DNA of 64,000 nucleotides from Thermoplasmatota archaeon (GCA_036154155.1 JAYZLP010000020.1:13849-77848); one strand, 5' to 3'. Numbered from the stretch's first letter, positions 239-10,800 are shown. Program-made: numbers and translations. Notes: generated by a model not told the origin, from the letters alone.

Positions 239-358
239 GGGTCCCAACATTGAATATCCTGTTTCCCAAGTGGTGGTCAGGGGAGCTTAGTGCTGAGAGG
301 TCGCCGCGAGGCGACGACCCTTTTACCTGATCTGGGTAATGCCAGCGGAGGGAGAGAA

Positions 359-1822
359 ATGGATACGAACATCGCATACGGATTGATGATTGCAACGCTG
401 GGTGTCTTCGGTTACATCGGATACCAAGCATCGAATGCCAAGGAGATCGGGGCCGATGACTACCTCTCAGCCAGGGGCTCGCAGGACTGGCTGCGAATCG
501 GGCTGAGCCTGTTCGCCTCCGGGATGGGTATATGGATCCTTTTCGCCCCATCGGAGGTCGGCTACTACGGCGGGTTCTGGGATGTCGTCGGCTACGCCGT
601 CTCCGCGTCCACGCCATTTCTACTTCTGGCGTACGTAGGGCCGATGATCCGTGCGAGGCTGCCGTCGGGAGTGACTCTGGCTGACTATGTGCGCATCCGC
701 CTAGGCAGGCCAATGCAGGTCTATGTGGGATTGATTTCGGTGCTGTACATGTTCACCTTCCTGTTCGCCGAGTTCACTGCAATCGGCAAGGGGATGAAGA
801 CCCTCTCTGGGATGGAGCCGCTAATCCCCATGGCATTGGTGGGGGTTGTCACCGCAGGGTACGTATCGAGAGGCGGCCTTCCAGCATCCCTGGCGACCGA
901 CAGAGTCCAAGCATGGACCATCATGTTCCTTGTGGTGGCCCTGCTGCTCGTTCTTTTCGGCGGAGACATCGGGGGGCTGATTGATGATGCCAGGGCATAC
1001 AACCCCGAAGACTCCTGGAGCATCGGGTCTATGTCGAACATGGACTCTTTCGAATCGGGCCTGGCTCTGATCGTCGCTATCACCGCTGCTGAGATGTTCT
1101 CCCAGGGAAACTGGCAGCGGGCGTGGGCGTCTGAATCCGACGAGGCCCTGGCCAAGGGGGCATGGCTCGCTGCGGCCCTCGTCCTCCCGCTGGTATTCGT
1201 GATGGGCGTCCTCGGGACCGTCGTCGCTGGGCAGGGGGCCGTTACCGAACCATCTGCAGCCTTCTTCTACCTGATTGAGGATGCCGGTGTTCTGTTTGTA
1301 GCCGCATTCATCGTCCTTGCAATCGCTCTGGTATGCTCCAGCGTCGATACCCTGCAAAATGCCATTGTGGCTTCGATATCAAGAGATCTCAGTGATAGCA
1401 CGATGAGCCTTCAGAATGCACGTTACTTGACAATCGGCATGATTCCCATAGCAATCTATCTGGCCACTGGGCCAACACTTCCTTTCACTATACCTCTAAT
1501 CGGAATATCCGCCTTCGATGCAGGAGGCGTGTTTCAGATATTCCTGTTCGCCGACCTGCTAGCAGCTGCAACGGTGATGCCGGTCCTACTCACCCTGTGG
1601 GAGGGGATATCTTCCAAGGGCGCACTGATTGGCGCTGTCTGCGGGCTGCTCTCCGTGGTCCTCTACGGCGCTTATACCGCGGATATCGGGACTGGTATCG
1701 ATTACGTCTTCTCGCCGACCAACGAGTTCGGCCTAGCGAACCTGCACGTATTCCTCTCAGCGGTCATAGGCTCCTCAATCGTGACGGTCGCTGGGTCCTA
1801 CGCACTCCCTGATGAGGAATGA
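359..1822 (+). CDS. Sodium:solute symporter family (SSS) transporter, possibly proline permease PutP-like
   Basis: Multi-TM protein; DDYLSARGS..GLSLFASGMG and AGYVSRGGL..TD motifs typical of the SSS family; it lies next to the P5C dehydrogenase. Start trimmed to MDTNIAYG. Confidence 0.7.
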   Translation: MDTNIAYGLMIATLGVFGYIGYQASNAKEIGADDYLSARGSQDWLRIGLSLFASGMGIWILFAPSEVGYYGGFWDVVGYAVSASTPFLLLAYVGPMIRARLPSGVTLADYVRIRLGRPMQVYVGLISVLYMFTFLFAEFTAIGKGMKTLSGMEPLIPMALVGVVTAGYVSRGGLPASLATDRVQAWTIMFLVVALLLVLFGGDIGGLIDDARAYNPEDSWSIGSMSNMDSFESGLALIVAITAAEMFSQGNWQRAWASESDEALAKGAWLAAALVLPLVFVMGVLGTVVAGQGAVTEPSAAFFYLIEDAGVLFVAAFIVLAIALVCSSVDTLQNAIVASISRDLSDSTMSLQNARYLTIGMIPIAIYLATGPTLPFTIPLIGISAFDAGGVFQIFLFADLLAAATVMPVLLTLWEGISSKGALIGAVCGLLSVVLYGAYTADIGTGIDYVFSPTNEFGLANLHVFLSAVIGSSIVTVAGSYALPDEE

Positions 1823-1946
1823 GCGGGCCCTGCGCTTTGTTCATGAACGCCCCCCTCTTCGCGAATCCGTGGACACAAGGAAACCCCTCTCAGTACTACT
1901 CCCTTGGAATGATGTCTGGAGGCCGTTGTGGTCCCGCAGGGAGGGC

Positions 1947-2660
1947 ATGGGGGGGTGGATGTTCACCCTATTCGTCTTCATCATTGGTCTGACTTGCGTG
2001 GCTGTCCCCTACTTCGCCTCCAACAACATCGCAGCAAGCTATCTTGGAACAGTTTGGGATCCCGAGATACCATTCGACCGAGACTTCCCCGTGATCAATT
2101 GGATGATCATCCCGTACGCCGCGCTGTACCTGTTCTACCCGGCTACCCTGATAATCGCCCCACGTAACGACAGGGGAAGGATGGAACTCGCCCTGGGAAT
2201 CCAGGGGCTAGCTCTCGCTACGATGTTCTGCGTCTTCTTCTTCATGGCTCTGCCCGCAGAGATAGACCTCAGGGACCAGCTCGATACCCATTGGCTGGAT
2301 CACCCTCCGAACGCGTTGGAGGAGGCGCTCTTCGGCTTCATCCACTTCTCGGATAATCCCTGGAACGCATGGCCGAGCCTCCACATCGTCCACTCGTACC
2401 TCCTGGCCAGGCTGATGACCCTGTGGGTAGTCAGGGAGTACCCGGAGAGCAAGGCGGCCTCGGCATTCCTGGCCATCCTCTGGATCGAGTGGGTGCTCCT
2501 ATGCATAAGCATCCTCGCCACCAAGCAGCACTACCTGTTCGACCTTGTTACCGGCGCATTGGTCGGAGTGGCATGCTGGAGGCTCTTCCTACCCGCTATG
2601 GAGATGGTAGAACAAAGGGGGCCATCGGAGATGGCCACCGAGTCCGGCTGGCAGGACTAG
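1947..2660 (+). CDS. PAP2-superfamily membrane phosphatase/transferase-like protein
   Basis: Polytopic membrane protein with PAP2-like motifs (WPSLHIVHS ... KQHYLFDLVTG). Confidence 0.55.
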   Translation: MGGWMFTLFVFIIGLTCVAVPYFASNNIAASYLGTVWDPEIPFDRDFPVINWMIIPYAALYLFYPATLIIAPRNDRGRMELALGIQGLALATMFCVFFFMALPAEIDLRDQLDTHWLDHPPNALEEALFGFIHFSDNPWNAWPSLHIVHSYLLARLMTLWVVREYPESKAASAFLAILWIEWVLLCISILATKQHYLFDLVTGALVGVACWRLFLPAMEMVEQRGPSEMATESGWQD

Positions 2661-4780
2661 TTGTTGTAGACTATCGGCAGGAACGCGTTGGCCGCTGTCT
2701 CGCAAGCGTTCGCAACGTCATCCATCCTCTGTAGTACCCTGTACATGTGCATGGCTGCGAGGGCCTCATCCTCGCCCTCGCTGAAGACCAGGGACGCTGC
2801 CCTGCCCTCGACCATATCTGCATCGTGCTCGGCCAGGTTCACCTTGTCAATCAGCTCGCCCAGCTTCTCGCGGCCCGCCTTGGTGTATCCGGAAAGGGTC
2901 AGGTCACGGAGTGCCGTGACAGACTCCTCGTACAGGGCAGCGGTCCTCGCCACAGACTCGCCCATCTCCTTCAGGGCGCTCCTTGCCTCTTCGTTGCCGT
3001 AAAGCGGCCTGAACGATAGCTGCTCGGCCACGTTCTGCGCGTAGTCCGCTATCCTGTCCTGCTTGCTCAGCATCTCCATGAAGTCCTCGGACCTCAGGAG
3101 GAGGCTCCACTGGCCAGAGCCAATCGCCTTCCTCAGGTCGTTCTTGATGTTGTCAGCCCTGAGCTCAGCAGCCACCGTGGCCTCTATCTCTTCAGTAGGG
3201 TCCTTTCCGTCAGCAGCCGCGTTTACAGCGACCAGCATGTGCTCGACTGTCTCGTTGACCGCCTCGGCATGAGTGTGGAACAGCTCGAAGTAGGTGGGGG
3301 ATCCGATTTCGGGGCCACCACCAACCTCCGCGAGAGCGTCCTCCACGTGGATCTCATCTCCGCTCGTGCTCCAGATCACGTAAACAACACCGGCTAGCGC
3401 AATGGGTATCACCACCAGTAGCTTGATCGGGTCAGAAGCAACGGCGACGAATATCAATATCGAGCCGAATCCAGCAGCTGGGAGGCTCGCGACCCATGAA
3501 GCGAAGATCTTGCCGAACACCCTGAAGTCGACAGCCTTCGCGCCTCCAGCCAGGCCAACGCCGACCACTGCTCCGACCAGCGTGTGAGTGGTCGAGACAG
3601 GTACTGCGAGGAATGGCATCGAGAAGATCAGTATGGTGGTCGCGGCCCCGAACTCGGCAGCGAAACCCCTCGTGGGAGTGATGTCGGTGATCTTGGTCCC
3701 TATGGTGTCCATGACCCTCCATCCCCAGGTCATCACACCAATCGCTATTCCAGCGCTCCCAAGGAGCACCAGCCAAACGGGAACTTCAGCCGACTCGGCC
3801 AATTCCCCGCCGCTAGACAGGACCTGGTACACTGCCGCCATGGGCCCGATGGCGTTCGACCTGTCGTTAGCCCCATGGGCGAAGGCGACGTAGGCAGCGG
3901 TGATGACCTGCAGCCAGACGAAAATCCTCTCGACCCCGTGGAAGCCGTCCTCCTCTCCCTTGAACTCGTAGTTCCTCAGGACGTAACCGAGGACCGCTGC
4001 CGCAATAACGGCGACAATGCTGGCAAGAATCAGGCTGTTGATCGGGAACCAGGCGTTGGCGTCCATCGGGTTCCAGGAACCGTTCTCCTTGACTGGCAAC
4101 CAGTCGTACTTGCTCTCAATCCATCCCTCTGACTGCGCCCTCGAGAAGAAACCCTTCAGGGCCTTGAACTGGAGCGCCAGCCCTAGGACGAAGAATGTAG
4201 GTACAGCCAGTATCGGTGCGAGCCACCTGGATCTCCCAATCGGGTCGTCGGCCTCGAGGATCGTCTCCCTCACTATGAAGAAAGTGAAGAACGCCAGGAG
4301 GGCGCCCATCAGTGGGCTAGCCACCCAGGACATCACGACCTTCTGGATGACCTCCCAGTCGATCAGGGAGGTGTCATGCTGAACCTCGAGAACCAGTCCC
4401 ACACCGACAATACCGCCGATTATGCTGTGAGTTGTGGATACGGGCAGCCCGTATCTGGTTGCTACGGTAAGCCAAACCGCGGCAGCCATCATGGCCGCAA
4501 TGAACCCGTACATCAGATCGTTCGCGAAGCTTTCCGTGACCGTCTCGAAGTCCACAGAGAGGATGCCCTTTCGCACGGTGTCCGTAACCGCGTCACCAGC
4601 GAAGAACGCACCTGCGAACTCGAATATGGCGGCTATGATCACTGCCTGCTTGAGCGTAAGGGCCCTTGACCCGACAGACGTACCCATTGCATTGGCAACA
4701 TCATTAGCTCCGATGTTCCATGCCATGTAGGCACAAACCACCAAAGATACAATCAGGACTAGCGTCATTATCGGTTCCAT
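2657..4780 (-). CDS. pit: Inorganic phosphate transporter PiT family fused to C-terminal PhoU/DUF47-like domain
   Basis: N-terminus NIGANDVANAMGTSVGSRALT and internal GANDRSNAIGP are PiT signature repeats. The last ~210 aa are helical and acidic, PhoU/DUF47-like (..LRSEDFMEMLSKQDRIADYAQNV..). Confidence 0.8.
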   Translation of the reverse strand: MEPIMTLVLIVSLVVCAYMAWNIGANDVANAMGTSVGSRALTLKQAVIIAAIFEFAGAFFAGDAVTDTVRKGILSVDFETVTESFANDLMYGFIAAMMAAAVWLTVATRYGLPVSTTHSIIGGIVGVGLVLEVQHDTSLIDWEVIQKVVMSWVASPLMGALLAFFTFFIVRETILEADDPIGRSRWLAPILAVPTFFVLGLALQFKALKGFFSRAQSEGWIESKYDWLPVKENGSWNPMDANAWFPINSLILASIVAVIAAAVLGYVLRNYEFKGEEDGFHGVERIFVWLQVITAAYVAFAHGANDRSNAIGPMAAVYQVLSSGGELAESAEVPVWLVLLGSAGIAIGVMTWGWRVMDTIGTKITDITPTRGFAAEFGAATTILIFSMPFLAVPVSTTHTLVGAVVGVGLAGGAKAVDFRVFGKIFASWVASLPAAGFGSILIFVAVASDPIKLLVVIPIALAGVVYVIWSTSGDEIHVEDALAEVGGGPEIGSPTYFELFHTHAEAVNETVEHMLVAVNAAADGKDPTEEIEATVAAELRADNIKNDLRKAIGSGQWSLLLRSEDFMEMLSKQDRIADYAQNVAEQLSFRPLYGNEEARSALKEMGESVARTAALYEESVTALRDLTLSGYTKAGREKLGELIDKVNLAEHDADMVEGRAASLVFSEGEDEALAAMHMYRVLQRMDDVANACETAANAFLPIVYNN

Positions 4781-4901
4781 GGCCCCTTGCGATAAATGAC
4801 AGGTATATTGATTTACAAATATATTTTCTATATAGTTATCTTAATATCGTTACACTAGAAGGCTACTATAACTATTTATTTAGACTCCACCTCGGAAGTA
4901 C
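4781..4901. promoter_or_regulatory. AT-rich divergent promoter region between pit (-) and the AbrB-PhoU regulator (+)
   Basis: 121-nt stretch of very low GC (tttacaaatatattttctatatagttatcttaatatcg) in an otherwise GC-rich window, with several TATA-like boxes on both strands. Confidence 0.4.
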
Positions 4902-5966
4902 GTGAATCATGAGGGAGCACCTAAGTCAGAGGTAAGGAGATTACAACAGACTGGTGGTTCCACATTCATAGTCAGTCTGCCTAAGAAGTGGGTTACAGAA
5001 CATGGTTTGGCTGCCAAGGACCACGTGCGAATAGAGTGGCGTCCATCGGGAACCCTGAGAGTGATTCCAGAAGCATCATCCATTAGCAGACGTAGGGAGG
5101 TGGCAATAGATCTTGACGATGTTCCAGAGAACATGGTGTTCGATCACCTAGTAGCAGCTTATTTGGCAGGCACTCAGGTGATTAGAATACGTTCAACCTC
5201 CGGATTCTCTCGAACAGAGAGGAAGATATTCCGGAAATTCGTCAATACCTCAAGAGGCGTCGACATATCATCGGAAAGTGAAAACTCGATAGAGATGATA
5301 AGTCTACTGAGTCCTTCGGAGATGCCACTCTACTCAAGTCTGAATAGGATGTATCTCCTAATCCTGAGTCAAATTAGAGATGTCGTAGACGTTCTTGGAG
5401 GTTCAGATAAGGAAGTTCTAGAGGACTGCCATGAAAGAGAGCAGGAGGTGGACGCGATTAGGCTACTTCTTGAGAGGCAGGTAGGGCAGATATTGGAGTC
5501 TGCTAGTATCGAGGACTCTTTGGGGACTTCGAGATGGGAGGCGTCGGAATTGGGAAAAGTCGTTAGGACGATGGAAAGAATGGGCGATCACTCATATGCT
5601 CTTTGCAAATTAACTTTGGAGAGGGAGGACAGCAGTCAATTGTCGATCGAAGAAACACCCTTGGATGCAATTCCGGTGTGGCAGGAATCGATTAAACTCC
5701 TTATCTCTAACTTTCGGAAGAGAAAGGTATCCGAGATTCACTTGGCCAAGGAGAGACTTTCTTCAGCCTTAGTGGGTCTCGAGGATTTCGAGACACAACT
5801 CAGATCTAGTTCTATGGAAATCTCAGAAGCCCTATTCCTGGACCGTATTTCTGAGTCTCTAAGGAGGATATGTGCCTATTCCATAAACATGAGCGAGATT
5901 TTACTGAATATTCAATCTCACAGAGATTCCTTTGAGGTTTCTTCCCCTCAATTTGGTAGAATTTAG
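4902..5966 (+). CDS. phoU: Phosphate uptake regulator, PhoU-like domain with N-terminal SpoVT/AbrB DNA-binding domain
   Basis: N-terminal LQQTGGSTFIVSLPKKWV is a swapped-hairpin AbrB-like motif. The rest is a helical PhoU-like repeat architecture. It sits next to pit. Confidence 0.7.
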   Translation: MNHEGAPKSEVRRLQQTGGSTFIVSLPKKWVTEHGLAAKDHVRIEWRPSGTLRVIPEASSISRRREVAIDLDDVPENMVFDHLVAAYLAGTQVIRIRSTSGFSRTERKIFRKFVNTSRGVDISSESENSIEMISLLSPSEMPLYSSLNRMYLLILSQIRDVVDVLGGSDKEVLEDCHEREQEVDAIRLLLERQVGQILESASIEDSLGTSRWEASELGKVVRTMERMGDHSYALCKLTLEREDSSQLSIEETPLDAIPVWQESIKLLISNFRKRKVSEIHLAKERLSSALVGLEDFETQLRSSSMEISEALFLDRISESLRRICAYSINMSEILLNIQSHRDSFEVSSPQFGRI

Positions 5967-6691
5967 GCCACTGACTCGAGTATGTAGAAAGCACCGCTGG
6001 CAACTATTCCCGACATCACAATATTACGGATCAACTCCGACTTCATTGTCTCCAACCACCTCTTGCCAACCCTGACTCCAAGCAGGGCTGCTACCACCAA
6101 AATGGCAGTCAGTTGGAGGTGCTCCACAATCTCGTCCGGCCTGAAGAACAGGTAGACGGGAATCCGCGATAGGTCCACGCAAAGCGCCAGGACGCTAGCC
6201 GTGGCGGCGTACGCCATCTTGTCGCTCAGCCTCCTTGTCAGGAACATTGCCCTAAGGGCGCCCTGGTGCCCTGAAAGGCCCCCCATGAATCCGGAACCGA
6301 AGCCACCCACCCTGTCATTCGCCTCAGGAATCCTGTACCCGGTCCACGACTCGCTGAGGGTGAGTATCGGCAGCAGCACCAGGAAGACGCCTATCACGGC
6401 CAGTAACGGGTCCTGCGGTACCTGGTTCTGAAGCAGCGCCCCCATGATTGACCCCGCGACCAGCCATACCCCGTAGTGCCGGAACGCGGAGAGGTCGACG
6501 CTTTCCCTCAGTGCAACGAACTTCCCGGCGTTGTGGGCGCCATGGACCACCGCAACGACGGCAACCGCCTCGTGGGGCCCCATCATGAGCAGAACAACCG
6601 GCGTCAGCATGGTCGACAGCCCGAACCCGGCAGGCACCGTCAGCGCGGCTGCTAGGAAGCAACCGAGGAAAGCGAGCACCACCATCTCCAT
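5963..6691 (-). CDS. TauE/SafE (DUF81) family membrane transporter
   Basis: Hydrophobic 243-aa protein with a G-rich TM pattern (GFGSGFMGGLSGHQGALRAMFL) typical of the sulfite-exporter TauE family. Start trimmed to MEMVVLAF. Confidence 0.65.
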   Translation of the reverse strand: MEMVVLAFLGCFLAAALTVPAGFGLSTMLTPVVLLMMGPHEAVAVVAVVHGAHNAGKFVALRESVDLSAFRHYGVWLVAGSIMGALLQNQVPQDPLLAVIGVFLVLLPILTLSESWTGYRIPEANDRVGGFGSGFMGGLSGHQGALRAMFLTRRLSDKMAYAATASVLALCVDLSRIPVYLFFRPDEIVEHLQLTAILVVAALLGVRVGKRWLETMKSELIRNIVMSGIVASGAFYILESVA

Positions 6692-6699
6692 TCTCGCAC

Positions 6700-8148
6700 C
6701 TAACCGAGGATCCCTGAGACCAGTGCCGGCTGGGTCAGGTAGGCGAGGAGCCCCGCACCTGCGAACATCATCATCCAAGCGCCAGTAGCCTTGACGACCC
6801 CTGTCGACCTCCTGAGGAAGTCCAGCATGGCCTGCCTGCCCGTCCCTACGAGGGCAGTCACGGTGACCATCAGGATGGTGGCGGAGAGTATCAGGCCCAG
6901 CATGCCCGAGAGGAACGCGCCGTCACCGACCACAGTGAGCCATGCTACGAACGGGAACACGGCCGCCGCCGTGCAGTCCACAGAGGCGGCGCTGTACCCT
7001 ATGCCCCACAGGAACATGTTCCTGCGCGGAGTGAATCTCTCGTCGGACTCGTCAGTCTGGTACTTGTCCAGCGCCCTCTGGACCCATGCCAAGAGGTGGG
7101 ACGTCCATCCGAGCAGCATCATCCCGCCTAGGATGAGCAGCAGCCATGCTATCGCCACCGCGATGTCGTGCAGGGCCCCCGAGAGGTCAACGATCCCGTC
7201 CAAGCCGAAGATTATCGCTCCTACCGCCGTGAAGAACGCCAGTTGCCCGAGGGCAGCGAACAGGCCCACCTCGACGGGCCTCGGCATGCTACCGGTTATC
7301 TTCCCCGCCTCGATCAGCTCGTCCTGCCTCATCCCGAGGTTCAGGTAGTAGGTGATGTACGACGGTAGTACGGGGAACGCGCATGGGGAGAAGTAGACCA
7401 GCACCCCTAGGAAAAGCCCGATCAGGAACACGCCCGCCATCGAGCTGTCGGGCTTCTCTATGCCGAACCTGAGTGACTCGGCATCTCCCTCGTTAGCCCT
7501 CTCGATCGCTGAATCGAAGGACGACCAGCCATCGAGTGGCGTCCCAGTGCTCTCCTTGGCGACCGCATAGCCCTCGTGGTCTATCACAAGGACTAGGGGG
7601 ATGGCCTGTGCGAAGTAGTGCTCGACCAGGTCCCCCCTGGTGCCGTCATCGAGGATCACCGAATCAGGCCCCCCGTTCGCAACTGGCCAACTCATGTGCT
7701 TGTCTGAATCCGAGTCTCCGAAGGTAGAGTTGATCCTGTCGAAATCCTCGTACGCGTACCACGTGGCCACAGACAGGGCGATTACTGGGTAATCCCCGTC
7801 GAGATTCCCCCATTCGCCAATATTCCTGTCTATGTGCTCCTGGACGTAGTGGCAGTTAGCGCAATCCACGGCCATGAAGTCCAGGACGACCACGTTGCCT
7901 CGCAGGTCACTAAGGCGAATCACTCCGGAATCGTCGGCTATCAGGTCGTCAATGCCAGTCCTGTTCATCGATTCGACTTCGAAGTCAGGTACTACAACGG
8001 CGTTTTCGCTTACCCCATATGCGGAGGAGGATAGGCCGAAAAGGCTGAGCGAAGAGTACCCGATGATGCAGAACAGGACGACGCCCACGCCGAACCCCCT
8101 CCAGGTGTCCCCTTCCCGGAGGACGCCGAAGTCAAGTCCCGCAGCCAT
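6700..8148 (-). CDS. Thioredoxin-like domain fused to CcdA/DsbD-type transmembrane thiol:disulfide electron transporter
   Basis: N-terminal exported Trx-fold with CxxC (VLDFMAVDCANCH). C-terminal half carries the CcdA motifs FSPCAFPVLPSY and a second TM cysteine (SAASVDCTAAAV). Confidence 0.75.
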   Translation of the reverse strand: MAAGLDFGVLREGDTWRGFGVGVVLFCIIGYSSLSLFGLSSSAYGVSENAVVVPDFEVESMNRTGIDDLIADDSGVIRLSDLRGNVVVLDFMAVDCANCHYVQEHIDRNIGEWGNLDGDYPVIALSVATWYAYEDFDRINSTFGDSDSDKHMSWPVANGGPDSVILDDGTRGDLVEHYFAQAIPLVLVIDHEGYAVAKESTGTPLDGWSSFDSAIERANEGDAESLRFGIEKPDSSMAGVFLIGLFLGVLVYFSPCAFPVLPSYITYYLNLGMRQDELIEAGKITGSMPRPVEVGLFAALGQLAFFTAVGAIIFGLDGIVDLSGALHDIAVAIAWLLLILGGMMLLGWTSHLLAWVQRALDKYQTDESDERFTPRRNMFLWGIGYSAASVDCTAAAVFPFVAWLTVVGDGAFLSGMLGLILSATILMVTVTALVGTGRQAMLDFLRRSTGVVKATGAWMMMFAGAGLLAYLTQPALVSGILG

Positions 8149-8245
8149 GAATGCCCGAATCGGGCCGGACTTTTGATTCCGGCGGGAGAAGGCGCCCTTG
8201 GTGCGTCATCATGCTTATCGTGAGGATTCAGCCCGCATGCACCCG

Positions 8246-8321
8246 GGGCTCGTGGTCTAGGGGTTATGACGTCGCCTTCACATGGCGAAGATCGCAGGTT
8301 CAATTCCTGCCGAGCCCACCA
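8246..8321 (+). tRNA. tRNA-Val (anticodon CAC), CCA encoded
   Basis: Cloverleaf: acceptor gggctcg/cgagccc, anticodon stem tcgcc/ggcga with loop ttCACat, T-arm gcagg-ttcaatt-cctgc. Confidence 0.85.
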
Positions 8322-9023
8322 TCAGCCCAGAATGTCGTCAAGCAGAGATGATGCCCCTATCCTGAGCCTGCTTCTCCCATGGATTCCTGCCTCATTAGAA
8401 TCCACGATTCCGACCAATCTCTCGACGTCTTCCATGGTCCTGATCCCCCCTGAAAGCTTGACGCCCCTCTCCTCGCCCATCGTAACCGAATGGCGCTTCA
8501 CCTCGAAGGAGAGTAATCGGGCGTCCTCATCGCTGCAAGCCCCCCTCATGCCTGTGCAGCTTTTCACGAAGTCGGCCCCAGACGCCAGTACCATGCGAGT
8601 CACTGCTCTGATGTCGTGCTCCCCAAGTAGAGGAGTCTCTATGATTACCTTGAGGGCCCGTCCGGCCGATGCATCCCTCATCGCCTTGAGTAAGGCCAGG
8701 TCCCGCTCGCCCGGAAAGTCGTCCGAGTCACGCGGCTCTAGGACGCAATCGATCTCGTCCGCCCCATGTCTAACCGCCGTTTCAACCGATTCCCGAATCG
8801 AAGAGGCATCGTTCCAGCCCACGGGGAATCCACCAGCCACTGCAGCCACCGAGATCCCTTCATCTAGCAGGCCCCTGACCAATTCAACGTGCTCAGAGAA
8901 TACGCACACGGCTGCAGGCCTGTGTTCGTTCGCCCTCTCGCACAGCATTTCCAAATCTGCATACGAGGCCTCGTGGTCCAGCAATGTGAGGTCCAGTATG
9001 TCGAGAACGCCTCTAGCGTCCAT
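8322..9023 (-). CDS. deoC: Deoxyribose-phosphate aldolase
   Basis: DeoC-type TIM barrel with FVKSCTG and KLSGGIRT Schiff-base lysine motifs; start trimmed to MDARGVLD. Confidence 0.8.
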   Translation of the reverse strand: MDARGVLDILDLTLLDHEASYADLEMLCERANEHRPAAVCVFSEHVELVRGLLDEGISVAAVAGGFPVGWNDASSIRESVETAVRHGADEIDCVLEPRDSDDFPGERDLALLKAMRDASAGRALKVIIETPLLGEHDIRAVTRMVLASGADFVKSCTGMRGACSDEDARLLSFEVKRHSVTMGEERGVKLSGGIRTMEDVERLVGIVDSNEAGIHGRSRLRIGASSLLDDILG

Positions 9024-9031
9024 GAAACCAC

Positions 9032-10123
9032 TCACCCGTGCCTTGCCTCGAATCGTCTCATGAACGAAACCAGGGCTTCCACGCTTTCTATCGGGCATCC
9101 GTTGTACATGCTCGCCCTGATGCCTCCGACGCTCCGGTGCCCCTTCAGCCCACCTAGCCCCGATGCGGCGGCCTCCTCAAGGAATGCCGGCTCCAGATCA
9201 TGGTTTGCTAGCCTCCATGTGACGTTCATCACAGATCTTGAATCAGTATTGGCGTGAGGGACCCAGAATGGCGTCCTATCCAGCTCCTCGTAGAGAAGTG
9301 ACGCCTTCTTTCTGTTCCTCTCAATGGCCCCCTCTAGGCCCCCGTTTCTCTCGACCCATGCCATGACCCTGTCAAGGACGAAAATTCCGAATGTGTTCGG
9401 GGTGTTGAACATGGATCCCTTGGAAACGTGGGTCCTGTAGTCCAACATCGTGGGAACCCCCTCTCCAATCTTGGAAACTGCCCAGGGAGATAGGATGACT
9501 AGGGTTACCCCGCTGGGCCCCAGGTTCTTCTGCGCCCCGGCATAGACGAGGTCATGGGATGATACGTCCAAGGGGGTACCGCAGATGTCCGAGCTTGCAT
9601 CTACCACCCGTGGCTTTCCTCCGCTGTCCGGAATGTGGTGGAACTGAGTTCCAAAGAGAGTATTATTTGACGTGTAGTGCATGTAGCTCGCTTCGTCCCT
9701 AATGGTATAATCGCCATTGCTAGGGACAGAAACGAATCCGTCATCGGACCCGTCCCAAGCCGCCTCAGCATCGCCAACCCTACCTGCCTCCTTGATGGCC
9801 TTCTGAGACCAACCGCCCGTGATTAGGAAGTCCGCCTTCCCTTCATTTCCAAGCAAATTAAGGGCAGTCATGTAGAATTGTGTGGAAGCACCTCCCTGCA
9901 GGAATAGGACATGGTAATCATCAGGAACAGAGAGAACCCTTCTGACCCTCTCTTCCGCGGAGTCGATTACGTTCTGGAAGGTCCCACTTCTGTGAGAAAC
10001 CTCCAGTAGCCCAAAACCGCTGCCCGATAGGTTCGGAAGAGCCTCGGCTACTTCGGATACCACCTCGAGGGGCAGTACAGCTGGCCCCGCGCCGAAATTG
10101 TGCACCCGGCCCGCCCCGGTCAT
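9032..10123 (-). CDS. serC: Phosphoserine aminotransferase (class V aminotransferase)
   Basis: NFGAGPAVLP N-terminus; overall SerC/SerC-like architecture. Confidence 0.8.
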   Translation of the reverse strand: MTGAGRVHNFGAGPAVLPLEVVSEVAEALPNLSGSGFGLLEVSHRSGTFQNVIDSAEERVRRVLSVPDDYHVLFLQGGASTQFYMTALNLLGNEGKADFLITGGWSQKAIKEAGRVGDAEAAWDGSDDGFVSVPSNGDYTIRDEASYMHYTSNNTLFGTQFHHIPDSGGKPRVVDASSDICGTPLDVSSHDLVYAGAQKNLGPSGVTLVILSPWAVSKIGEGVPTMLDYRTHVSKGSMFNTPNTFGIFVLDRVMAWVERNGGLEGAIERNRKKASLLYEELDRTPFWVPHANTDSRSVMNVTWRLANHDLEPAFLEEAAASGLGGLKGHRSVGGIRASMYNGCPIESVEALVSFMRRFEARHG

Positions 10124-10203
10124 GCTTGGACGTACAATACCCGGTCTTTCAGCCCATCGGAGGGCACGACAGGGTTCATCTCTACTAGGCGGGACGCCGG
10201 GTC

Positions 10204-10800
10204 GTGCTGCGAATCGGGTTGGTCATGCTTCAGGGTGCAAGGCACGCCCATATTGCCTCAATAGAGGCAGCATCCTCCAACTCCAATATTCCGGTGGAGG
10301 TTCACGAGATTAGAAAGCTCTCTGACCTCCACTCCTCCGATCCACATGCGATAATCTTGCCAGGTGGCGAGTCAACCACGATGAGGCTCACTGGATTGGA
10401 TAAGTCATCCAACCTTCTACCCGGTCTTTTCCAATGGATAAGGGACAAGCCCGACCGCCCAGTACTGGGAACGTGTGCGGGAGCAATCCTTCTCTCCGAC
10501 CCCCAGGATGGGGGCCTCCCTCTAGTCGATGCTTGCATCGATCGCAATGCGTACGGCAGGCAGTACGACTCCTTCCAGGACACCCTCTACTCGCCACTTC
10601 TGGGACGCGATTTTCCCGGAGTTTTCATCAGGGCCCCGAGATTCACATCCAACGACGCGGAGATTTCAGCGATGCACGGCGACGAGGTAGTTGGCGTTAG
10701 GTCGGGCAACGTCATAGCACTCACATTCCATCCGGAGCTGTCTGGCGATCACGGATTCCACGACTGGCTCCTGGGGTCTGCGAAGGAGGCTATGGAATGA
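10204..10800 (+). CDS. pdxT: Pyridoxal 5'-phosphate synthase glutaminase subunit
   Basis: IGLVMLQGARHAHI, ILPGGESTTM, GTCAGAILL, FHPEL class I glutamine amidotransferase triad motifs of PdxT. Confidence 0.85.
   Translation: MLRIGLVMLQGARHAHIASIEAASSNSNIPVEVHEIRKLSDLHSSDPHAIILPGGESTTMRLTGLDKSSNLLPGLFQWIRDKPDRPVLGTCAGAILLSDPQDGGLPLVDACIDRNAYGRQYDSFQDTLYSPLLGRDFPGVFIRAPRFTSNDAEISAMHGDEVVGVRSGNVIALTFHPELSGDHGFHDWLLGSAKEAME

Follow-up and report, generated by a model that had tools for sequence, protein, structure and literature searches.

The DNA considered here, referred to below as the window, is a stretch of 64,000 nucleotides (nt) from a Thermoplasmatota archaeon (GCA_036154155.1, JAYZLP010000020.1:13849-77848), and all positions are counted from its first nucleotide. 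Two divergent genes within it are the subject of this report. On the minus strand lies a gene in which a PiT-type phosphate transporter continues, in the same reading frame, into a C-terminal PhoU_div/DUF47 domain; on the plus strand lies a gene for a predicted regulator with an AbrB-type head and a PhoU body, and an AT-rich spacer of 121 nt separates the two. The fusion gene and its parts are listed first, with residue numbers referring to its 707 amino acid (aa) product.

2657..4780, minus strand: PiT-TM13-linker-DUF47 fusion gene (PitA-PitR fusion), 707 aa; an uninterrupted ATG open reading frame (ORF) of 707 codons
3467..4714, minus strand: PiT/PHO4 transporter core, residues 23-438 (PF01384 match)
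3371..3427, minus strand: 13th transmembrane (TM) helix, TM13, residues ~452-470 (hydrophobicity; helix in the AlphaFold2 (AF2) model; beyond the C-terminus of TmPiT)
3293..3370, minus strand: variable acidic tether, residues ~471-496 (D/E-rich; low AF2 predicted local distance difference test score, pLDDT)
2672..3280, minus strand: PhoU_div/DUF47 (PitR-type) helical bundle, residues 501-703 (PF01865 match)

An earlier, sequence-only reading of the window had proposed one in-frame polypeptide of 707 aa, consisting of a PiT transporter and a PhoU-like C-terminus, and the uninterrupted ORF, together with two Pfam domains above their cutoffs, confirms this. PF01384 matches residues 23-438 (E = 6e-113; 377.8 bits against a cutoff of 33.7) over positions 1-348 of the 350 in the profile; phmmer aligns residues 8-443 with TmPiT (6L85) at E = 1e-73, and Foldseek matches the core to the same structure at E = 3e-18, with a TM-score of 0.80-0.83 normalised to the target. 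The PiT family signature, PD001131, is duplicated, G-phi-N-D-phi and P-phi-S-x-T occurring in each half of the protein (PMC7413737). Both GANDxxNA motifs (GANDVANA at residues 24-31 and GANDRSNA at 303-310) and both PxSTTH motifs (in LPVSTTHS at 112-119 and VPVSTTHT at 393-400) can be read directly from the core, and they are invariant in both family alignments inspected. On every feature testable by sequence or fold, the fusion protein belongs to the PiT family (PF01384, TC 2.A.20), and family membership predicts cation-coupled phosphate transport. No paralogue of the fusion gene, or of the regulator gene, was found elsewhere within the window.

For the C-terminal domain, the check that had been proposed was a hidden Markov model (HMM) search of residues ~500-707 against PF01865 and PF01895. 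It gave a full-length PF01865 match at residues 501-703 (E = 5e-18), which spans profile positions 13-211 of 214 and scores 65.7 bits where the cutoff is 24.4, and Foldseek confirmed the DUF47 fold, with TM-scores of 0.80-0.89 and root-mean-square deviations of 2.2-3.7 Å to SO_3770 (2OLT/2IIU) and BT4638 (3L39). The phmmer match of the domain to 2IIU has E = 9e-7, and AF2 pLDDT is ~90 or higher over the domain. Putative acidic positions of the D/ExxxD type (D575, D579, E651, D655, D687, and D688) are invariant. The fused domain also matches all 20 standalone DUF47 ORFs that adjoin pit genes in other organisms (E = 1e-9 to 1e-19), with scores of 26-60 bits for both gene orders, pit before DUF47 and DUF47 before pit. 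By these comparisons it is a divergent member of PF01865 that falls outside the TIGR00153 equivalog, and by analogy it would have a role in phosphate homeostasis together with its own Pit.

The junction between the two domains is more elaborate than had been supposed. Of the "12-TM core plus PhoU-like domain" in the sequence-only reading, both parts stand, by HMM and by fold, but the simple 12-TM layout does not, since the protein also has TM13 and a flexible tether. Residues 452-470 are strongly hydrophobic (Kyte-Doolittle (KD) value of 2.42), and the AF2 model of the fusion protein shows a helix at 451-471, disorder at 473-493 (pLDDT <50), and a confident helical bundle at 497-705; the alignment with the 402-aa TmPiT ends at residue ~443, with TM13 lying beyond it. 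Across 28 family members, TM13 is hydrophobic in every one (KD 1.6-2.6) despite only 38% identity, and Arg or Lys immediately follows it in 22. The tether in the same 28 proteins is D/E-rich, 24-33 aa long, and has a mean identity of 23%, whereas conservation is 67% in the PiT core and 64% in the DUF47 domain; judged from sequence conservation, conserved domains joined by a variable linker are the pattern of a true multi-domain protein. In alignments with unfused loci that keep one frame and have a stop codon between pit and DUF47, TM13 and the linker form an insertion at the junction, and the fusion is therefore not the mere loss of a stop codon. Both termini of TmPiT are extracellular (PMC7413737). 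Since the C-terminus of a PiT lies outside the cell, attaching a cytoplasmic domain there requires an extra membrane pass; TM13 would bring the chain back to the cytoplasm, the home of standalone DUF47 proteins.

Same-frame loci of this kind, split by a stop codon alone, mean that one base error could in principle mimic a fusion. One rival account is that pit and DUF47 are really two genes here, and that an error in sequencing or assembly erased the stop codon or frameshift dividing them. We regard the probability of such an artefact as negligible. The identical 707-aa protein is found in three independent assemblies, one an ENA metagenome and two Logan assemblies of separate runs, and pit and DUF47 form a single ORF, of 708-755 codons from stop to stop, in all 15 full-length Poseidoniales loci from species-representative genomes; the check for a hidden stop or frameshift accordingly turned up none. 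A search of 5.8 billion proteins gave at least 8000 candidates, and the cluster counts that follow refer to the matches listed: both Pfam domains are present in 120 of 120 clusters (81-98% identity, 689-731 aa), and a second search, from a family member of 59% identity, found both in another 120 of 120 (614-738 aa). All 240 are thus fused; they span 56-98% identity among the matches listed, and the labels of the second set include Thalassarchaeaceae (MGIIb, where MGII denotes marine Group II), Poseidoniaceae (MGIIa), and Poseidoniales. Finally, the junction carries a conserved additional TM helix and linker that are absent from unfused loci, and it is not what read-through would leave. The artefact was rejected on the strength of the three assemblies, the 240 clusters, the 15 single-ORF loci, and the conserved TM13 and linker. 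The fusion architecture is fixed across Poseidoniales, in both MGIIa and MGIIb, and it is a real, clade-wide variant of the known PitA/PitR system in marine Group II archaea, not an error.

Outside this order, pit and DUF47 were two genes in each of the 20 non-Poseidoniales loci in which the match reached the DUF47 region (19 from bacteria of many phyla and one from the Thermoplasmatales archaeon SM1-50). In nine of them pit precedes DUF47, and in 11 the order is reversed; those with pit first often keep a single frame with only a stop codon between the genes (L022, L023, L024, L030, and L064). A published survey of 926 bacterial genomes likewise found pitR (PF01865) as a separate gene adjoining pitA, with one exception (PMC13170248), so that the earlier statement that the accessory protein is normally encoded by its own gene holds. 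The same survey retrieved single-domain PitR proteins only and did not consider archaea (PMC13170248). A HMMER scan of 1.84 billion representatives at 50% identity found one other full-length fused cluster (67% identity) and fragments of the family; beyond the fused family, scores drop from 978 to ~340 bits, into ordinary PiTs of 400-520 aa. When the C-terminal domain was used in phmmer against the 150 best of these representatives outside the fused family, it was found in none, and the ten longest of the 150 are, by Pfam, PiTs of the eukaryotic type or proteins whose fusion partner is an SPX, kinase/ACT, or LCIB carbonic-anhydrase-like domain, not DUF47. Judged from the best-ranked matches, the fusion seems to have arisen in Poseidoniales and to be confined to that clade; remote PiT lineages could hold independent fusions. 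No description of a PiT-DUF47 fusion was found in the searchable literature, and sequences of the fusion are already public under uninformative names: "DUF47 family protein" or "hypothetical protein" at NCBI, and "PiT family inorganic phosphate transporter" at JGI. On MGII phosphate uptake, the searchable literature yielded nothing relevant beyond PMC13170248, PMC7413737, and PMC7325993.

Other PiT fusions were seen among the close representatives, namely SPX-PHO4 (P0372) and, in P0312 and P0313, PHO4-ACT-protein kinase and an LCIB-type carbonic-anhydrase-like domain joined to PHO4; PiT has evidently acquired such regulatory or accessory domains repeatedly.

The second gene of the pair encodes the regulator, which has three parts.

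4902..5966, plus strand: AbrB-PhoU regulator gene, 354 aa (GTG ORF of 354 codons; Pfam)
4944..5081, plus strand: SpoVT/AbrB-type DNA-binding domain, residues 15-60 (PF04014; AF2 beta-strands 15-56)
5097..5303, plus strand: alpha/beta middle domain without annotation, residues ~66-134 (AF2)
5328..5924, plus strand: two-repeat PhoU helical bundle, residues ~143-341 (PF01895 and Foldseek)

That a separate regulator with a SpoVT/AbrB head and a PhoU body lies here was also anticipated by the sequence-only reading, and it is supported by two Pfam matches above cutoff, PF04014 over residues 15-60 (34.1 bits against 24.7) and PF01895 over residues 147-237, the first PhoU repeat (43.3 bits against 23.5), as well as by a PhoU fold over the C-terminal ~210 residues. 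In the AF2 model (pLDDT 82.7) the AbrB head at 15-56 is rich in beta-strands, and a helical bundle occupies 143-341. The second PhoU repeat was missed by Pfam even at E <= 10, and a profile of the regulator family run against PDB sequences found 1T72 alone (E = 9e-4), again without detecting the second repeat; Foldseek, however, aligned the bundle with the full-length PhoU structures 1T72, 2I0M, 1XWM, and 4Q25 over ~212 columns with TM-scores of 0.62-0.72, and it is through fold comparison alone that the second repeat is resolved. The middle domain is modelled as alternating strands (E) and helices (H), E66-70, H76-88, E93-97, H104-117, E120-125, and E129-134, with pLDDT of 76-89; no Pfam family matched it even at E <= 10, and no separate fold match was obtained. 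The regulator had 355 detected homologues, nearly all from marine Thermoplasmatota and labelled "phosphate uptake regulator PhoU" by NCBI and JGI, and many of those at 42-46% identity are listed with PF01895 only. Automatic gene calling gave 319 aa in L002 and L003, and 354 aa in the third assembly; the shorter calls start too late and lose the N-terminal part of the AbrB domain, so that the DNA-binding nature of the protein would be hidden in annotations. Sequence-specific DNA binding and phosphate-dependent control are predictions from its domains.

Divergent pairing of the fusion with this regulator, likewise noticed from the single sequence, is kept in 14 GTDB Poseidoniales loci out of the 15 whose upstream sequence is long enough to show it, and it persists while the identity of the regulator falls to 38-44% and that of pit remains at 57-90%. 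Three loci depart from the usual arrangement: in L014 the regulator is upstream of pit but co-directional, in L006 it is reduced to a short remnant, and in L009 it is absent, an unrelated ORF lying upstream of pit. In the unfused SM1-50 locus, an AbrB-PhoU gene lies 2 kb from pit-DUF47, beside a calcineurin-like phosphoesterase gene; since it is clustered there with unfused genes, the association is older than the fusion. These neighbourhoods also bear on the suggestion that the plus-strand gene encodes a generic AbrB factor or a MazE-like antitoxin that adjoins pit by chance. The Pfam family matched does carry the name "MazE_antitoxin", and AbrB-type heads are present in many unrelated regulators and antitoxins, but the gene has no adjoining toxin partner (its neighbours are TauE and the PiT fusion), its product contains a complete PhoU bundle, and adjacency to pit is retained across Poseidoniales down to 38% regulator identity, and nearby even where pit is unfused, as in SM1-50. 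We consider a chance AbrB or antitoxin neighbour very unlikely, and the antitoxin assignment was rejected because of the full PhoU bundle and the lack of a toxin partner.

The spacer between the two starts contains the following elements.

4781..4901, no strand: divergent promoter region, AT-rich, 121 nt (lowest GC in the window; footprint across 15 loci)
4803..4808, minus strand: box 2 (ATATAC), a putative TATA box for transcription of the fusion, with its end 22 nt from the ATG
4828..4835, no strand: box 1, the palindrome CTATATAG, which may be an operator, a TATA box for the regulator, or both (footprinting)
4872..4882, plus strand: CTATTTATTTA, a third element resembling a TATA box, with its end 19 nt from the GTG of the regulator

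GC content is 32.2% in the spacer and averages 52.2% over the window. A scan of all 121-nt frames agrees with the earlier claim that the spacer is the most AT-rich stretch of the 64 kb: the lowest frame is at 4792-4912, with 28.1% GC, and the next lowest anywhere has 34.7%. Phylogenetic footprinting of 15 divergent-pair spacers, that of the window included, revealed two conserved elements in otherwise diverged sequence, the palindrome CTATATAG and ATATAC(C/T), which are 27 nt apart, start to start, in all 15 loci. Box 2 is present with zero or one mismatch in 11 of the 15 and in most ends 20-24 nt from the pit ATG, which is the distance expected of an archaeal TATA box serving a leaderless or near-leaderless mRNA. 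It is also kept in L006 and L009, both of which lack an intact regulator. Box 1 is degenerate or absent in these two loci (in L006 it is degenerate and shifted by 4 nt), and its palindrome is retained in L014, where the regulator is co-directional.

The spacers fall into two length classes. In the 11 short ones (71-80 nt), box 1 lies 17-25 nt from the regulator start, and it can therefore serve there as the regulator's TATA box. In the four long ones (those of the window, L004, L008, and L018), box 1 is 66-69 nt from the regulator start with its 27-nt register to box 2 intact, and an equivalent of CTATTTATTTA is found in all four, 19-24 nt from that start. In the window, this third element takes part in an 11-nt inverted repeat, in which 4868-4878 pairs with 4829-4839 in the region of box 1. 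Within the 64 kb the exact 8-mer CTATATAG occurs only once, and sites with one mismatch number five against 12 expected by chance; with one exact site and fewer near matches than chance would give, no regulon can be defined within the window.

We interpret the spacer, from its sequence, as a compact bidirectional promoter in which CTATATAG is the best candidate operator for a dimeric AbrB head. A plainer interpretation is that it is no more than a back-to-back set of generic archaeal TATA promoters, two or three in number, and that neither its AT-richness nor CTATATAG reflects a regulator-specific operator. The distances just given for box 1 in the short spacers and for box 2 are indeed those of TATA boxes for leaderless transcripts, and elements resembling TATA boxes occur near -25 at a few other genes of the window. 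Against this interpretation stand the 66-69 nt between box 1 and the regulator start in four loci that keep the 27-nt register unchanged, the persistence of box 1 in L014, its degeneration or absence where the regulator has been lost, and its occurrence as an exact 8-mer only once in 64 kb. On balance we think that generic TATA promoters alone are a somewhat improbable account of the spacer.

Similarities of the regulator and of pit are incongruent among loci. In L005 and L007, pit is 80-83% identical to that of the window and the regulator 43%; in L008 and L018 the values are 75% for pit and 57-61% for the regulator. Grouping by regulator similarity coincides with the class of spacer length, 121-130 nt as opposed to 71-80 nt, which suggests either two regulator lineages or exchange of a cassette consisting of the regulator plus half of the spacer at a fixed site.

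Taken as a whole, the locus is read here as a PitA-PitR fusion under an AbrB-PhoU regulator, a reading that we hold to be moderately probable and whose functional content comes from domain identity and synteny. In S. aureus, PitR (PF01865) acts only with its cognate PitA in the phosphate response, and pitR almost always adjoins pitA; joint loss of the accessory regulators PitR and PhoU leads to over-accumulation of phosphate (PMC13170248). In the proposed mechanism, TM13 would return the chain to the cytoplasm and so keep the PitR-like domain at all times on the cytoplasmic side of the transporter to which it is joined, in 1:1 stoichiometry. The tethered DUF47 domain would act as free PitR does with PitA, monitoring either transporter activity or cytoplasmic phosphate, and it would then restrain uptake, report phosphate status, or both. 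The AbrB-PhoU protein, probably a dimer through a swapped-hairpin AbrB head, would bind CTATATAG in the spacer, 19 nt upstream of the TATA-like ATATAC box of pit and, in most loci, ~17-25 nt from the regulator start. From this position, binding would autoregulate the regulator and tune pit transcription, the latter following phosphate status as sensed by the regulator's PhoU bundle. The two mRNAs probably have little or no leader.

Instead, the tethered DUF47 domain might do no more than gate or stabilise its own transporter and have no part in signalling, the AbrB-PhoU protein might sense phosphate independently, and the two proteins might never interact. The regulator possesses its own complete, sensor-like PhoU bundle, a covalent tether that fixes DUF47 at the membrane suits local control, and NptA-type transporters also carry a fused PhoU domain of their own (PMC13170248). 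Yet the transcriptional phosphate response of S. aureus, and not transport alone, is influenced by free PitR and also by the PhoU domain fused to NptA (PMC13170248), and the tight, conserved gene pairing fits crosstalk, though it does not require it. A solely local gate therefore seems to us possible but doubtful. At the other extreme, archaea without PhoBR could signal phosphate status through a path of two proteins, with the tethered PitR-like domain at its membrane end: while the transporter is busy, i.e., phosphate is replete, the DUF47 bundle would capture the PhoU bundle of the regulator at the membrane, and when flux stops the regulator would be freed onto the CTATATAG operator to re-programme pit and its own gene. 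This is distinctly unlikely in our estimation. Were it true, the fusion would be a "Rosetta stone" implying that PitR-family proteins contact the cytoplasmic face of PiT directly, and PhoU-superfamily bundles would signal via heterotypic bundle-bundle contacts.

Several observations count against the reading of a PitA-PitR fusion controlled by the divergent AbrB-PhoU protein. The fused domain does not reach TIGR00153, an NCBIfam hypothetical-equivalog (46.2 bits against a cutoff of 104.3), and the regulator does not reach the phoU_full equivalog TIGR02135 (28.4 bits against 130.25), so that functional orthology to characterised proteins is not established for either. The regulator, being far below the phoU_full cutoff, shares the PhoU fold but is not a PhoU orthologue; the fused domain, being below TIGR00153 and lacking the stand-alone neighbour-gene architecture, is classed as a fused variant and not as canonical PitR. 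Docking of DUF47 on the transporter is not confidently predicted (AF2 predicted TM-score of 0.58, with a disordered linker). CTATATAG could be merely a symmetric TATA box rather than an operator, and the tracking of regulator presence by box 1 rests on only three informative loci. Poseidoniales may lack a PhoBR-type partner, and the output pathway of bacterial PitR is thus not directly transferable. The searchable literature was without transport, binding, or expression data for the fusion protein or for any archaeal AbrB-PhoU regulator, and no study defining an operator or regulon of the archaeal AbrB-PhoU class was found in it.

The closest relatives of this system are the PitA and PitR proteins of S. 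aureus and other bacteria (PMC13170248). The families are the same, PiT/PHO4 and PhoU_div/DUF47, the regulator is in both cases genetically locked to its cognate Pit, and the expected role, coupling transporter status to phosphate homeostasis, is alike; the Poseidoniales version differs in being one polypeptide with an added TM helix and tether and in its archaeal host, and its likely transcriptional partner is a one-component AbrB-PhoU regulator, not the PhoPR of S. aureus. The closest architectural precedent is provided by the NptA-type Na/Pi cotransporters, phosphate importers that usually have a C-terminal, covalently attached PhoU-superfamily domain (PMC13170248). NptA, however, combines a PF02690 transporter with a domain of the PF01895 PhoU clade, whereas the Poseidoniales fusion combines PF01384 with PF01865 and needs an extra membrane pass; Pfam found no PF02690 match in the fusion protein, and NptA is an architectural analogue only. 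With the bacterial PhoU-PstSCAB-PhoR system (the E. coli paradigm; 1T72, 2I0M, 4Q25), the regulator has in common the two-repeat PhoU fold of its C-terminal ~210 residues, and the gene pair has in common the logic of an accessory protein that reports transporter status. Bacterial PhoU, however, has no DNA-binding domain, while the Poseidoniales regulator has an AbrB head and a middle domain in addition to PhoU, and no pst genes are adjacent. The AbrB-plus-PhoU architecture itself is that of TK2245 of Thermococcus kodakarensis, a "SpoVT/AbrB family regulator containing PhoU domain" that was recovered in the chromosome-associated fraction (PMC7325993); features peculiar to the Poseidoniales clade, when set beside the TK2245 class, are its box-1/box-2 promoter and the conserved pairing, in divergent orientation, with a PiT-DUF47 fusion. 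The eukaryotic fusions of SPX to phosphate transporters, SPX-PHO4 (P0372) among them, also place a covalent sensor of phosphate status on the cytoplasmic side, but this is a functional analogy: SPX is attached N-terminally, has an unrelated fold and ligand (inositol pyrophosphates), and shows no homology to DUF47.

A 2026 study showed that in one bacterium the dominant accessory regulators of phosphate are PitR-type (DUF47) proteins (PMC13170248). A clade-wide fusion with an extra membrane pass is strong comparative evidence that PitR-type proteins and Pit are in direct physical contact, 1:1, at the cytoplasmic face, and structural work could take the fusion, with both partners in one chain, as its target. 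In the surface ocean, where phosphate is often limiting, Poseidoniales rank among the most abundant archaea. The gene pair, with its recognisable promoter motif, could mark Poseidoniales phosphate sensing and uptake in metatranscriptomes, and CTATATAG would be the first candidate operator for the widespread archaeal AbrB-PhoU regulators.

The genes around the pair were also considered. Downstream of the fusion, and convergent with it, is a further gene that may be connected with phosphate.

1812..2660, plus strand: PAP2-family membrane phosphatase gene (PF14378 and PF01569); convergent, with a 4-nt overlap with the fusion stop

A PAP2 gene lies downstream of the fusion in 13 of the 22 Poseidoniales loci examined (the window included), and the phosphatase may be a phosphate-scavenging partner or accessory of the fusion, a link suggested by position. 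On the regulator side, the minus strand carries a gene for a 482-aa membrane protein (6700-8148), whose sole Pfam match, AhpC/TSA-like, is weak and sub-threshold; after it comes a TauE/SafE-family exporter gene (5963-6778), and both are conserved regulator-side neighbours in L001-L003. The ORF upstream of pit in L006 (3546-3733, minus strand) looks cold-shock-protein-like by eye.

Base composition divides the window in two. GC content at third codon positions (GC3) is 0.64-0.79 for the genes of the first ~10.8 kb (290-10800), i.e., the SSF, PAP2, PiT fusion, and 482-aa membrane protein genes and others, and 0.44-0.61 for the bulk of the window; the regulator has a GC3 of 0.47 though embedded among high-GC3 genes. 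The same contrast was seen in L004, L007, and L018.

Lastly, a thiamine pyrophosphate (TPP) riboswitch (RF00059) was found at 269-370 on the plus strand, immediately upstream of and overlapping the called start of a gene for a PF00474 symporter (290-1822). It recurs in four related Poseidoniales loci (L001 8411-8512, L004 8405-8504, L010 8622-8723, and L018 8381-8482), with RF00059 scores of 55-62 bits against a gathering score of 54.3. TPP riboswitches are uncommon in archaea, and this one suggests that the PF00474 sodium:solute symporter is a transporter of thiamine or a thiamine precursor under riboswitch control.

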